DNA of 64,000 bases from Chiloscyllium plagiosum (Eukaryota), in NCBI RefSeq assembly GCF_004010195.1, contig NC_057718.1, positions 55,901,862 through 55,965,861 on the forward strand, written 5' to 3'. Positions 4,363 through 56,644 of this stretch are shown in pieces (positions within the stretch are counted from its first letter, which is position 1; every line of letters begins with the position of its first letter). Position numbers and translations under genes: made by a program. The notes under the pieces were generated by a model, which did no database searches, was not told where the DNA came from, and saw only the letters and a program-made list of their open reading frames with translations.

Positions 4363-5524
4363 AAGGACAAGCAGAGAAAATTTTGAACAATGCATATTGT
4401 GTAAAGAGAGCTTACGGAAGTATCGTATATTTTGATATTTGGTATAGAATTAAGAGCTTTACTCATGATTAATACAATATCTGGAAATTCTGAAATTAAA
4501 GTGTTCTTCAATGAAATAGATTTAAGTAGTCTTGAAATAAATTTGTAGTTGGTAATTAGGAAGTAATAATTCTTTGTTTCACTTTGCTGCTTAAATGAAT
4601 TGACAGTTTTTTTAGTGAAAAATCTTTAAGGTCAGTTACTAAACAACTCTTTTGCTGTGATGTGATTAAAGATATACTGATTTGAATTTTTTTCCATTGT
4701 TGCATTTGCAACATTTGAATTCTATTCAAAGAACATCCTTCAAATCAAATCTATCTATTCTATTGCTCTAAACGTTTTGTTTGATGTTTTGAATAGTATA
4801 GTAGTATGCGAAAACACTGTAGTTGTTAACTCCGTTACTGAATGCTTTGAATACGAAGTGTCGGTAAAATTAATAGATTTCTATGTTCAAGTATCTCTAG
4901 GCTGCTGCTTCTGCTGTAAATAAATCAGCATTTAAATTAGTCTGCTGACCATGTTTTGACAAATATTATTTCAACTAGTAAACTGCCTGACTACAACTCT
5001 CTGATATCTGTAATATAAAAATGCTGCACAGTAATAAAAAGTGATGGATTTATATCGAAGTAGATGATCAACATGAATTTGTTTCTCCTCATGATTAAGT
5101 CTAAACCATACTTGATTTCAAATAACAAAAATCCACCATTTCATTTCACACAAATCAAGAATTTCAAGTGTTAAGCTACATCAGCGTAACACATTCAAGA
5201 TAGTATCAATGTCATCAGACTGTCTTGTAACGTGGCAAAGCACACTGATTAAAATGTTGGTGTCCGACTCCTTGCTACAGATTTAATTATTACCAGCATT
5301 AGCTAACAGTAGACTTAAGCTATCTTGCCTACTGAATAAGATTATACAAATTTGAATAAAGTAAATAAAATGACACAAATGTCTTCCTCACCTGTTTAGC
5401 AAATTTTCTACCTGAAAACAGATCTCTTAATAGATTCAGTCATTGTGCAATTACTTTAAAAATTTGAACATTTGCTAAGAAACACTTAATATTGTATTAT
5501 GTTTTAACTTGCTTTCCTTTGGAG

Positions 5525-5539
5525 GCAGGGAATTGTCAA
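5525..5539 (+). CDS. EML6: Candidate 15-nt alternative microexon GCAGGGAATTGTCAA, (R)QGIV(K)
   Basis: ttgctttcctttggag|...|gtaagt. It preserves frame in the phase-2 intron and resembles the recalled EML5 insert RQGVVRGSR. Confidence 0.75.
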
Positions 5540-5949
5540 GTAAGTATTATGTGTATATTTAATTATAAATATAATTTTATAATTCTATATTATATTAATA
5601 TAAAAACATTGTCACTGTATATTATATTGTGCATTCTGGTTTTGACATTTTGACACAATAAAATATCTTTGAGTTTTCTTAAAATATAGTGTATTGTATT
5701 GTTATCATTAAAGGGATTGAAAATACTTCAAAAGATATTTGAACTTCCATTGAGAGCTGAAAAAATACACAAGATTTCATACTCTAAAATTTTGTAAAAC
5801 AACTGACTGAAAGTGCTATTGATTGCATACTATTTTATTTTGTGTAGGCAACTTTTATTTTGAACTACAGAAAAGAACATTCCTCTAGACTTACTACATA
5901 TTACACCATGGAATGACAATTCTCATAACTTGTTCCCAGCATCCAAAGG

Positions 5950-6200
5950 ATTTCTGCATCCCCACTTTGTCAAGCAAGAACATAGAGTGACTATCTCTAA
6001 GTGCTTTCCACAGATTTTGGAGAGTTTCTAAAACCCTTCACCCAGTACCACTCTCTTACGAACAGCACTATGGATGCATATAAGCCCCAAAGATTGCAGA
6101 CACTCAAGAAAGCAGCTTAACACTCAGCTTCTCAAGTGCAATTTGGGATGGGCAATAAAAGCTGGCCTAGCCAGTGATGACCATATCCTGAAAATAAATG
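5950..6200 (+). mobile_element. L2-group LINE/SINE 3' tail
   Basis: cttctcaag...gggatgggcaataaa.gctggcc; the same tail occurs reversed near 12985-13090 and 18890-19000. Confidence 0.55.
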
Positions 6201-6559
6201 GGAAAAATATATGAAAGCCCATTCATATCATTCTTCTCATGCTAGCATGAATTTCCTGGAATCCTGTGATGGCTGCAGAATGTGTCTAAATCTCTCCCAC
6301 ATCAGACTATGGTGCCTTGAAAAGGCAAATAGCCTTTTCCCTCTGACAGATCTTCTACTGTCTATCTGAGACACTCATTTATTTCTAGGAACATCTGTAA
6401 CCTGATCTCAAAATTGAGTTCTACTGCTATCTTCCTCCTAGCAACATGAAACAAATTACCCTTTCATCCAGGGAGAGTAGTTGATGATTGGCTATTCTTG
6501 ACATTAATTGTATTGGAGCTTAGAAATAAATAGACAGTTTTCAAAAATGCAACATTAGG

Positions 6560-6972
6560 AGACAATCAACCTACTCATTGAGAACTGAGATTGCTGAGAA
6601 AATATGTTCAGTTCCCTCATCTAAATTATTAGTAGACATTGTGAATAACTGGGGTCCAACTATTGATCCATGCTGTACATCACTGGGTGTCACTTGGAAA
6701 ATGGTCTATTTATTCCTCATGTTTGTTTCCTTTCTGCCAGCCAGTTCTCAATCCATTATACCCAACCCCATGAATTTTAATTTTGCATGCTCATCTCTTA
6801 TTGGGACCTTAGTGAAACCATTCTGAAAGTCCAATAAAGCACGTTTACTTGTTCCCCTTTATCTACTCAACTAGTTAGATCCTCAAACTTCCAGTAAATT
6901 TGCAAAGCATGATTTTCCTTTCATAAAGCCATGCTGACTCTGCCCAATCCTGTCACTGTTTTCCAAATGCTG
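6560..6972 (-). mobile_element. Degenerate CR1 RT fragments
   Basis: Reverse-strand SQHGFMKGKSC and LDFQ motifs. Confidence 0.65.
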
Positions 6973-54324: not shown

Positions 54325-54578
54325 TTGGAACTTGTGATACACACCACCAACTTCCAGAACATTTCAGAAAATATCTCTGGGATACATGCACCAAACAACC
54401 CCACCACCTTGTGGCCGACCACTTCAACTCCCCCTCCCACTCTGCCAATGACATGCAAGTCCTGGGCCTCCTCCACCACCAAATCCTAGCCACTCGATGC
54501 CTAGAGGAAGAACATCTCATCTTCTGCCTTGGGACCCTCCAACCACACTGCATCAATGTTGATTTCTTCAGTTTCCTC
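54325..54578 (+). mobile_element. Neptune-type PLE GIY-YIG C-terminal fragment
   Basis: VADHFNSPSHS...EEEHLIFCLGTLQP. Confidence 0.75.
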
Positions 54579-55535
54579 ATGTGGACAAAATTTCCTCTTT
54601 TCATTATACAATACAGCACCAACTTCAAATGTTTTCTATGGCATTGAATCTGTCTGGGTTAGTCCTACAACAATTATACTCAATGTGAGGATCCTTGGTC
54701 TCTTCTGCTGCAGTTGGTATTTAGTGATGTCATGCATGGTCAAAGTATTTGGATCCAAGCTGGTCAGTTAAATCTTATAGCTGTTCTAATGGTGAATTCT
54801 GAAGTTTATTTTTACACAAGGCTGATTTTCCACCATTTCTCATAGTTCAGCAAGATTTATATGGTCTTTTTGAAACAGGCCAGAAATGTTTCCAATGATT
54901 TCTTTCTTTTCTCTCCTTGCTTACCTTGTTTTTTTCCATCTAAAAACCACAGCTCCATTGTTTGTTGAAAGAGCCTACACGTGAATAGGATGGGTATGGC
55001 CTTTGTTAGTCATCTTTCTAATGTTTCTTGCTTTCAACAATGGGAATTTATTGTGCTCTTGCTACTATAAGGTTACTATCTCACTACAAAGATTCAGCAG
55101 TGGTGTTGTTCTGTTTCTTTTATGTTTGTTTCATTCTGTCCTGTGTTTTTTTTACATGAAGCTTGGACTTTGTTTAATTTTGTTTTACAAATCTCTTACT
55201 CACATTTGGGTAGCTTTTTAAATCTGGAATCCCAGCATAGGTGTAACTTCTTCACTGTTGCAACATTTCTCTGAAGTCATCTCTTGTGATATTCAAACTT
55301 GTCACTGCTTTGTTTTTAAGAAAAATCCCCAGTTCTGATCACCATCTCTTATTTCCTGTGTTATCGGTAAGAATACAGATTAAGAAGCTTGGGTATTCAG
55401 TTTATTTTAAAATCGCATGAAGACTTATTTAAAACCTTGAGCTATAACTTTCTGTACAGATAACTATATATTTAACCTACATCTGATGAACTGCATATAG
55501 CAGTTGTTCATATTCTTACATTCTGGTACTTGACT

Positions 55536-55765
55536 TGATTTGGAGATGCCTGTGTTGGGTGTACAAAGTTACAAATCACACAACACCAGGTTATAGTCCG
55601 ACAGGTTTAATCGGAAGCACTAGCTTTCGGAGCACCGCTCCTTCATCAGGTGGTTGTGGAGTGCACAATTGTAAGACACAGAATTTATAGCAAAAGTTTA
55701 CAGTGTGATGTAACTGAAATTATACATCGAAAAATACCTTGATTGTTTGTTAAGTCTCTCATCTA
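55536..55765 (-). mobile_element. PLE-derived short element, family B
   Basis: gatttggagatgcc...caacaccaggttatagtcc, same family as 28811-29492. Confidence 0.8.
55615..55655 (-). ncRNA. Intact minimal type I hammerhead ribozyme motif (family B)
   Basis: Minus strand: aacCAC-CTGATGA-a-GGAGC-ggt-GCTCC-GAAA-GCTA-GTGctt. Confidence 0.82.
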
Positions 55766-56212
55766 ATAGAATTATAACAGATGAACAAAAGGAGGCACAA
55801 ATGATGTTGTAATTTATTTTTTATGGCTCTTCAAATATGTAGTTGGTATTCTCATTGTGTTAGTGCTTAGTTCCTATTATGTAGTAAGACTAAAACTATT
55901 TCTTCACTGTACTTTATAATGTAAACCTCGTTTGAAATATGGGTCAATTATTTAAATTGCAATCTTAATTTAACAAGCTAGTTTGAATAATAAAGTTTCA
56001 TACATGGTAATAATACCCGTGTCACACTTCTAATTTGCCTTCAAATCAGAATTTTGCTTTTCTTAAAAGCACATCTTACCTTGCATCCATTTTACTTGTT
56101 TATTTTGTTATTGGTATTTTTCCTCGGATTCTGTTGTATAATGCCTCAAGATCAGAGGTATAATTTATCTAGGATCAATATTTCCTCATTTGCACTTGCT
56201 GTCTCAATGCAG

Positions 56213-56233
56213 GTGATATTGCAGATACATCAG
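56213..56233 (+). CDS. EML6: Candidate 21-nt alternative microexon GTGATATTGCAGATACATCAG, (G)DIADTS(G)
   Basis: tttgcacttgctgtctcaatgcag acceptor and consensus CAG|gtaagt donor. Phase 1/1 and frame preserving; resembles recalled EML5 GDSADMSA at the same position. Confidence 0.8.
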
Positions 56234-56644
56234 GTAAGTTTATCAGTTCTTTCCCTTTTCCAATGCCCACTGTTCCTCCTCCTTTCCATCATTCTCTTTA
56301 TATGTATTTGTGCAGTTTCATTGGTTCTCTCATGCCTGTGAAACTGTCACAATGTATTTGCTCATAAAGCCAATACATGTGGTTGTGCAACCTATGATTT
56401 TGTTCTGAGTTCATTGCAGTGCTTAATAGTTAGTATTAGAATAATAAGCCTTTATTCTACGTTACATGCCTGAACTAAATTAGTTGACTGTGAATGGATT
56501 TTGTTTCTGAGAAGATTCAAATAATTAATCAAAATGTTTATGCAAGCTACTGAAAGAAAACCACCTTCAAGTTTTAAATATTTTTGTCTTGTTTTTGTGT
56601 CTATACTTTCATTTTGATTAATGCAATATTTCTACAATTACTAG

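Follow-up and report, generated by a model that had tools for sequence, protein, structure and literature searches.

Here we report that part of the EML6 gene of the bamboo shark Chiloscyllium plagiosum, contained in a window of 64,000 nucleotides (nt) (GCF_004010195.1, NC_057718.1:55,901,862-55,965,861; all coordinates below are positions within this window), carries optional, frame-keeping microexons that are also present in its paralogue EML5. We consider it quite probable that these exons were gained in layers during evolution and that two of them, m15 and m9, are switched by SRRM3/4 in neurons and photoreceptors. The region belongs to contig C9 and encodes the linker and the start of the third HELP-WD (TAPE) repeat.

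5525..5539, forward strand: microexon m15, 15 nt, adds QGIVK; GAG acceptor; in RefSeq isoform X1
8043..8051, forward strand: microexon m9, 9 nt, adds GSR; AAG acceptor, TGCTGC at -13; in RefSeq isoforms X1 and X2
56213..56233, forward strand: microexon m21, 21 nt, adds GDIADTS; joined to exon E in run X4 contigs

Optional use of the EML6 microexons

The first-pass annotation of this DNA had proposed three microexons with lengths that are multiples of three. Indeed, exons of 15, 9 and 21 nt were confirmed, all of them AG/GT-bounded and frame-keeping, and the reading frame is open from constitutive exon A to exon E with every microexon included (exons A to F are listed below). The first two sit between exons A and B in an intron of phase 2, and m21 between exons D and E in one of phase 1. 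Their inclusion is neither constitutive nor absent: of the C. plagiosum RefSeq isoforms, X1 has m15 and m9, X2 has m9 only and X3 has neither, m21 being in none of the three. The m21 peptide was found identical in Hemiscyllium and catshark models.

For m21, contigs from public runs were compared over positions 55950-59100; these runs have no RNA label or tissue on record, yet their contigs join exons. In the contigs of run X4, m21 is joined to exon E over a GT..AG intron at a depth of 19.5, with zero mismatches in exons E and F. In runs X6 and X1 both exons are covered with no depth on m21, and the alignments begin one base earlier, as fits a direct joining of exon D to exon E; thus these contigs appear to skip m21. 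Single-cell raw reads of run X10 gave no coverage of the exons. Taking as a microexon any spliced, AG/GT-bounded exon of at most 27 nt, splicing is seen in contigs for m21 and in RefSeq isoforms for m15 and m9, and a fourth exon, m24 (see below), is recognized by homology. The EML6 contigs of runs X4 and X1 both end some 30 letters upstream of exon B (in record coordinates, from which the isoform is not readable), which would fit an assembly that branches at the microexon cluster.

Origin before the EML5/EML6 duplication

The EML5 paralogue lies on contig C10, of which 38 kb were compared, and matches catshark EML5. It carries all three exons (C10:30321796, 30326361 and 30344427) unchanged in length and host intron, and the phases are common to both genes (m15 2-2, m9 2-2, m21 1-1). 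Nucleotide identity between the copies is 13/15 for m15, 6/9 for m9 and 15/21 for m21, so that intron, phase, length and homologous sequence agree for each of the three. In the intron directly upstream of m9, 16 of 20 bases are identical between the paralogues (blastn E 8.5e-5 over 74 nt), and the position of UGC is maintained for m15 (-15/-14) and for m9 (-13/-10 in both). At the protein level, the match to paralogue inserts that the first-pass annotation had noted was found in EML5 proteins as QGVVR, GSR and DSADMS.

When introns were shuffled, the peptide score of m21 was equalled in 0 of 300 cases against human EML5 and in 0 of 300 against lamprey, that of m15 in 2 of 300 against amphioxus, and that of m9 in 24 of 300. 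The m9 peptide alone is thus not significant, and this exon rests on the RefSeq isoforms and on the flank that it has in common with EML5. Since both paralogues possess m15, m9 and m21, the comparison supports an origin of all three before the duplication, wherever the cyclostomes branch. The pre-duplication origin proposed earlier is therefore supported, and was even understated, as intron positions and phases are homologous between the shark paralogues and the peptides are found in older outgroups.

Probable layered gains in chordates

Of 394 proteins that contain the anchor motif and have 1000 residues or more, the taxonomic survey classed 353 and dropped 41; isoforms and near-duplicates are included and the counts are not independent. 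Among 14 amphioxus models, four have RKGIVKGSR, corresponding to m15 plus m9, four have RKGIVK only, six have neither and none has m21. The complete amphioxus insert differs from the shark RQGIVKGSR by a single residue over a 9-residue optional insert, and the m15-only form indicates, from protein models, that m15 and m9 are two separate exons. Nine of the 15 lamprey models have m21 and two have an m9-like RGT, and the single hagfish model has both m15 and m21. Neither m15 nor m9 was present in any of 88 other-invertebrate models, nor was an m21-length loop in any of the 78 that could be scored. The one-residue difference between amphioxus and shark, together with the intronic element shared by the paralogues, suggests that this microtubule-associated protein, little studied so far, is under strong selection.

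One further microexon, overlooked by the first-pass annotation, was seen only in EML6 of cartilaginous fish:

4607..4630, forward strand: microexon m24, 24 nt, adds SFFSEKSL; homology to catshark and skate EML6 inserts; TGCTGC at -22 (TGC at -22/-19)

Catshark and skate EML6 models contain eight additional residues ahead of m15, and among 47 AG-24-GY candidates in the window m24 ranked top against these inserts, its score being equalled by 0 of 300 shuffles. None of the three RefSeq isoforms examined for C. plagiosum contains it, and the insert is absent from the bony-vertebrate models classed. No copy was found among 139 candidates in shark EML5, so that m24 does not belong to the exons shared by the paralogues.

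From these sequence comparisons, it is likely that m15 and m9 were gained by the chordate ancestor, m21 by the vertebrate ancestor and m24 in the EML6 of cartilaginous fish. The earlier description of the exons as preserved in cartilaginous fish was right as to their presence there and too narrow otherwise, the inserts being found in models of most jawed-vertebrate groups. Trees put the cyclostome gene with EML5 (support 98 and 96 in the Shimodaira-Hasegawa-like approximate likelihood ratio test, SH-aLRT, with a composition warning). In an approximately unbiased test with 14 rows, a position of cyclostomes with EML6 was rejected (p 0.0007) and one outside EML5 plus EML6 was not (p 0.056), and because of the latter the duplication is not firmly dated relative to the cyclostome split.

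Eight mammalian EML6 models (P0023, P0149, P0151, P0154, P0156, P0160, P0028 and P0233) have no m21, which is present in bird, reptile, amphibian and fish models, and m21 was possibly lost from mammalian EML6. In some models of one teleost eml6 copy (P0032, P0035, P0040, P0074, P0077, P0190 and P0197) a short EAEVS-like insert directly follows m21, and the listed members of this cluster show no m15 or m9.

Splice signals and probable control by SRRM3/4

An upstream UGC had been claimed for the three exons, and a proximal TGC was found at all of them in EML6, starting at -15 for m15, -13/-10 for m9 and -22/-16/-5 for m21 relative to the exon start; its considerable background is weighed below. 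The combination of a UGC shortly upstream, a weak 3' splice site and an extended AG-free zone occurs at 4 of 4 EML6 microexons and at 2 of 3 EML5 copies, the exception being EML5 m21, with its nearest TGC at -72 and none proximal. Among 11 constitutive exons flanking the microexons in the two genes, 2 have a proximal TGC.

The position of the exons in islands free of transposable elements, also claimed earlier, is a weaker argument. By a rough repeat mask, made of 400 kb of random genome, EML5 introns and self-matches, repeat-free islands of 1.0-1.4 kb do exist around m15, m9 and m21; random intronic positions are equally far from a repeat in 22%, 9% and 12% of cases, respectively, and the host introns are themselves repeat-poorer (24% and 28% masked) than the large intron between them (54%). 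The latter, 37 kb long and separating exon B from exon C (10409-47178), contains many retroelement-like open reading frame fragments, their families judged by eye.

Regulatory data for the mammalian counterparts come from the tables and sections consulted in two publications. The human EML5 15-nt exon HsaEX0022381 is listed as a retina-enriched RetMIC, with a percent spliced in (PSI) of 89 in retina vs 9.7 elsewhere, a change in PSI of +16 to +73 on SRRM3/4 expression and of 0 on MSI1, and its site was mapped to an exposed coil adjoining residues PPVS (PMC9303857). A mouse Eml6 9-nt exon is listed as eMIC-dependent and the mouse Eml5 11/15-nt exon as eMIC-sensitive (PMC8797185, table S2). Thus, for m15 and m9, the neural SRRM3/4-type control suggested by the first-pass annotation agrees with published mammalian tables (PMC9303857, PMC8797185), and for the shark it is something that we infer.

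We propose that weak non-CAG acceptors (GAG, AAG) behind AG-free zones of 43-63 nt would lead to default skipping of m15 and m9, and that SRRM3/4 acting at UGC 10-15 nt upstream would rescue their inclusion in neurons and photoreceptors. Inclusion of both would add a basic 8-residue piece to an exposed linker just before the third HELP motif. With m21, tuned separately, seven residues of acidic character would be added to a loop in the third TAPE repeat, within its first propeller. Both inserts are predicted to tune partner or tubulin binding of this repeat, leaving the fold unchanged.

Alternative explanations

The first-pass annotation had regarded the exons as a single coordinated programme, in which one regulator would bring all three jointly into the same neural transcripts. 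The proximal UGC at all three EML6 exons would agree with this, as would models with all three in Hemiscyllium, catshark, skate and chimaera; all three are carried by 13 of 176 EML6 and 19 of 59 EML5 models, counts to be read with caution because gene models chain exons computationally, are not independent and cannot measure long-range co-inclusion on single molecules. However, all eight combinations of m15, m9 and m21 occur among the same EML6 models, m15-only forms (amphioxus, teleosts) and an m9-only form (C. plagiosum isoform X2) exist, and the commonest state in EML5 is m21 without m15 or m9 (20/59). Since m15/m9 and m21 are moreover of different age and EML5 m21 has no proximal UGC, one locked switch is argued against, and we regard it as unlikely. 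Instead, each microexon likely has its own inclusion threshold. As m21 is found in 51/59 EML5 models vs 66/176 EML6 models, it has likely drifted apart between the paralogues, being mostly included in the former and optional in the latter.

A bolder reading concerns the protein. The switch of m15 and m9 since the chordate ancestor, and later that of m21, would rebuild elements that are constitutive in EML1-4, namely a lengthened propeller loop and the atypical blade's N-terminal piece, making the third TAPE repeat an EML1-like, tubulin-binding module on demand in neurons and photoreceptors. The likeness of the m15 and m21 segments to EML1 comes from one alignment to 4CI8 and is to be taken as a lead only, and we judge this possibility to be distinctly unlikely.

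Returning to layered gain with SRRM3/4 control of m15 and m9, several points weigh against it. A TGC at -25 to -5 is common by chance, being found at 1231 of 4303 intronic AGs and 235 of 634 pyrimidine-rich AGs (29-37%), and in the part of the Bonnal preprint consulted UGC is reported in about three quarters of the targets and is not strictly required. The mouse Eml6 9-nt exon was equated with m9 by gene and length, not by sequence. In the supplementary tables searched m21 has no SRRM3/4 record, and likewise none was seen for m24 or for any shark exon. The tissues of the shark runs are not on record, and use of the exons in C. plagiosum is drawn from RefSeq models for m15 and m9 and from other species for m24. 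The amphioxus and cyclostome evidence consists of protein models, not genomic exon boundaries, m15 was present in 0 of 15 lamprey models, and the absence of m15, m9 and m21 outside chordates may reflect annotation depth. Finally, the suggested effect of the inserts on the protein is a proposal from alignment to EML1.

Some of these points, namely the UGC background, the missing record for m21 and the unrecorded tissue of the m21-including run X4, would also suit the view that the exons are ancient and are ruled in sharks mainly by other factors or tissues (e.g. muscle, gonad or PTBP1 derepression), the UGC being incidental. Against it, the UGC is kept in position between the paralogues at m15 and m9, and the mammalian exons respond to SRRM3/4 in the tables of PMC9303857 and PMC8797185, so that we assign little probability to this view.

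In both shark paralogues m15 contains a further AG, 4 nt in from its first acceptor, giving an 11-nt form (5529-5539) that shifts the frame to a predicted stop at 47189, far upstream of later junctions. Catshark EML6 models X9 and X10 follow this frame and the mouse Eml5 event lists both acceptors, 11/15 nt (PMC8797185, table S2), all of which would suit a site that chiefly lowers expression through nonsense-mediated decay; however, the m15 peptide is conserved from amphioxus to mammals, which requires in-frame use, the inner AG may be a mere by-product of a conserved Gln codon, and the human EML5 event is scored as not disrupting the open reading frame in the data consulted from PMC9303857, so that this explanation can practically be set aside.

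Other candidates and inserts

A candidate 14-nt AG/GTAAGT stretch at 7697-7710, with a good pyrimidine tract and frameshifting, was first taken for a possible poison exon. It lacks both a proximal UGC and an EML5 match, and it is not needed as such, because the inner acceptor of m15 explains the frameshifted catshark models. An m24-like match in an EML5 intron proved to be a reverse-transcriptase remnant of a long interspersed nuclear element, without a donor site.

Unrelated longer optional inserts occur at the m15/m9 position in brittle star (P0422, P0489 and P0492) and in amphibians (P0188 and P0558), and the amphibian inserts of 35-45 residues had no match within the shark introns. These inserts suggest that this intron repeatedly gains alternative exons. 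PMC9303857 further lists, for chicken EML6, a retina exon of 126 nt, which may lie elsewhere in the gene.

Farther downstream, amphioxus models P0452-P0456, P0459, P0460 and P0462 have the 2-residue inserts FA and RI, always together (8/8 models with either), and these were not seen in the vertebrate models compared. Five ray-finned fish EML5 models (P0561, P0562, P0571, P0574 and P0575) have an 8-residue insert near residue 280, which is possibly another microexon.

Gene identity and constitutive exons

A 69-residue exon of the window is a 100% match to C. plagiosum EML6, and the protein XP_043551898.1 (P0001) maps by tblastn, with boundaries refined, onto six constitutive exons. The gene also clusters with EML6 in trees (SH-aLRT 100), so that sequence identity and tree position agree.

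566..692, forward strand: constitutive exon A (GYDSDV...STEE), ends in phase 2; 100% tblastn match to XP_043551898.1, acceptor checked
10330..10408, forward strand: constitutive exon B (PPVSRA...KLVE)
47179..47308, forward strand: constitutive exon C (third HELP motif, HVFGYRG)
47968..48066, forward strand: constitutive exon D, ends in phase 1
56645..56818, forward strand: constitutive exon E, covered by run contigs
58877..59085, forward strand: constitutive exon F, covered by run contigs

Significance and comparison with known systems

Within one gene, microexon gains can thus be dated in series, to chordates, vertebrates and cartilaginous fish, spanning a duplication of which both copies were kept, and the EML5/EML6 pair is a direct test bed for the growth of neural microexon programmes and their retuning by paralogues. 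Since catalogues already contain this exon class and two of its mammalian members discussed here, the surprise is limited. We found no literature on the age or paralogue sharing of EML5/EML6 microexons, and Torres-Mendez 2019, Irimia 2014 and the Bonnal supplements could already list amphioxus or shark exons; no eml5 or eml6 rows were present in the supplements of PMC12626424 and PMC8379844, as far as these were covered, or in the searched files of PMC12626420. The set is likely a well-dated new example of known neural-type microexons, for which coordinated action as one unit is not supported.

Earlier work has described the TAPE domain and how it binds soluble tubulin (PMC4761370, PMC12182296, as far as consulted). 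Compared with the TAPE domain of EML1-4 (PDB 4CI8), EML6 with its microexons aligns to EML1 almost gap-free in the m21 loop, at near-equal length, and the GIVK of m15 aligns with EML1 GYVK in the segment before the HELP core. In contrast, EML1-4-type proteins have in that segment a hydrophobic strand before RGRP, which EML5/6 do not have, and EML5/6 contain three HELP-WD repeats and no coiled coil.

The microexons resemble the SRRM3/4 (eMIC)-dependent neural microexons of PMC8797185 in their length of at most 27 nt, kept frame, acceptor features (a weak 3' splice site with UGC close by and an extended AG-free zone) and cytoskeletal host; however, the table rows seen there neither link paralogues nor date exons, and neither m21 nor m24 was found among them. 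The RetMIC set of PMC9303857 includes the human EML5 15-nt exon next to PPVS, itself SRRM3/4-responsive. That work traces RetMICs to the jawed-vertebrate ancestor (mouse, chicken, zebrafish), whereas in our survey hagfish and amphioxus models carry the peptide, as does EML6.

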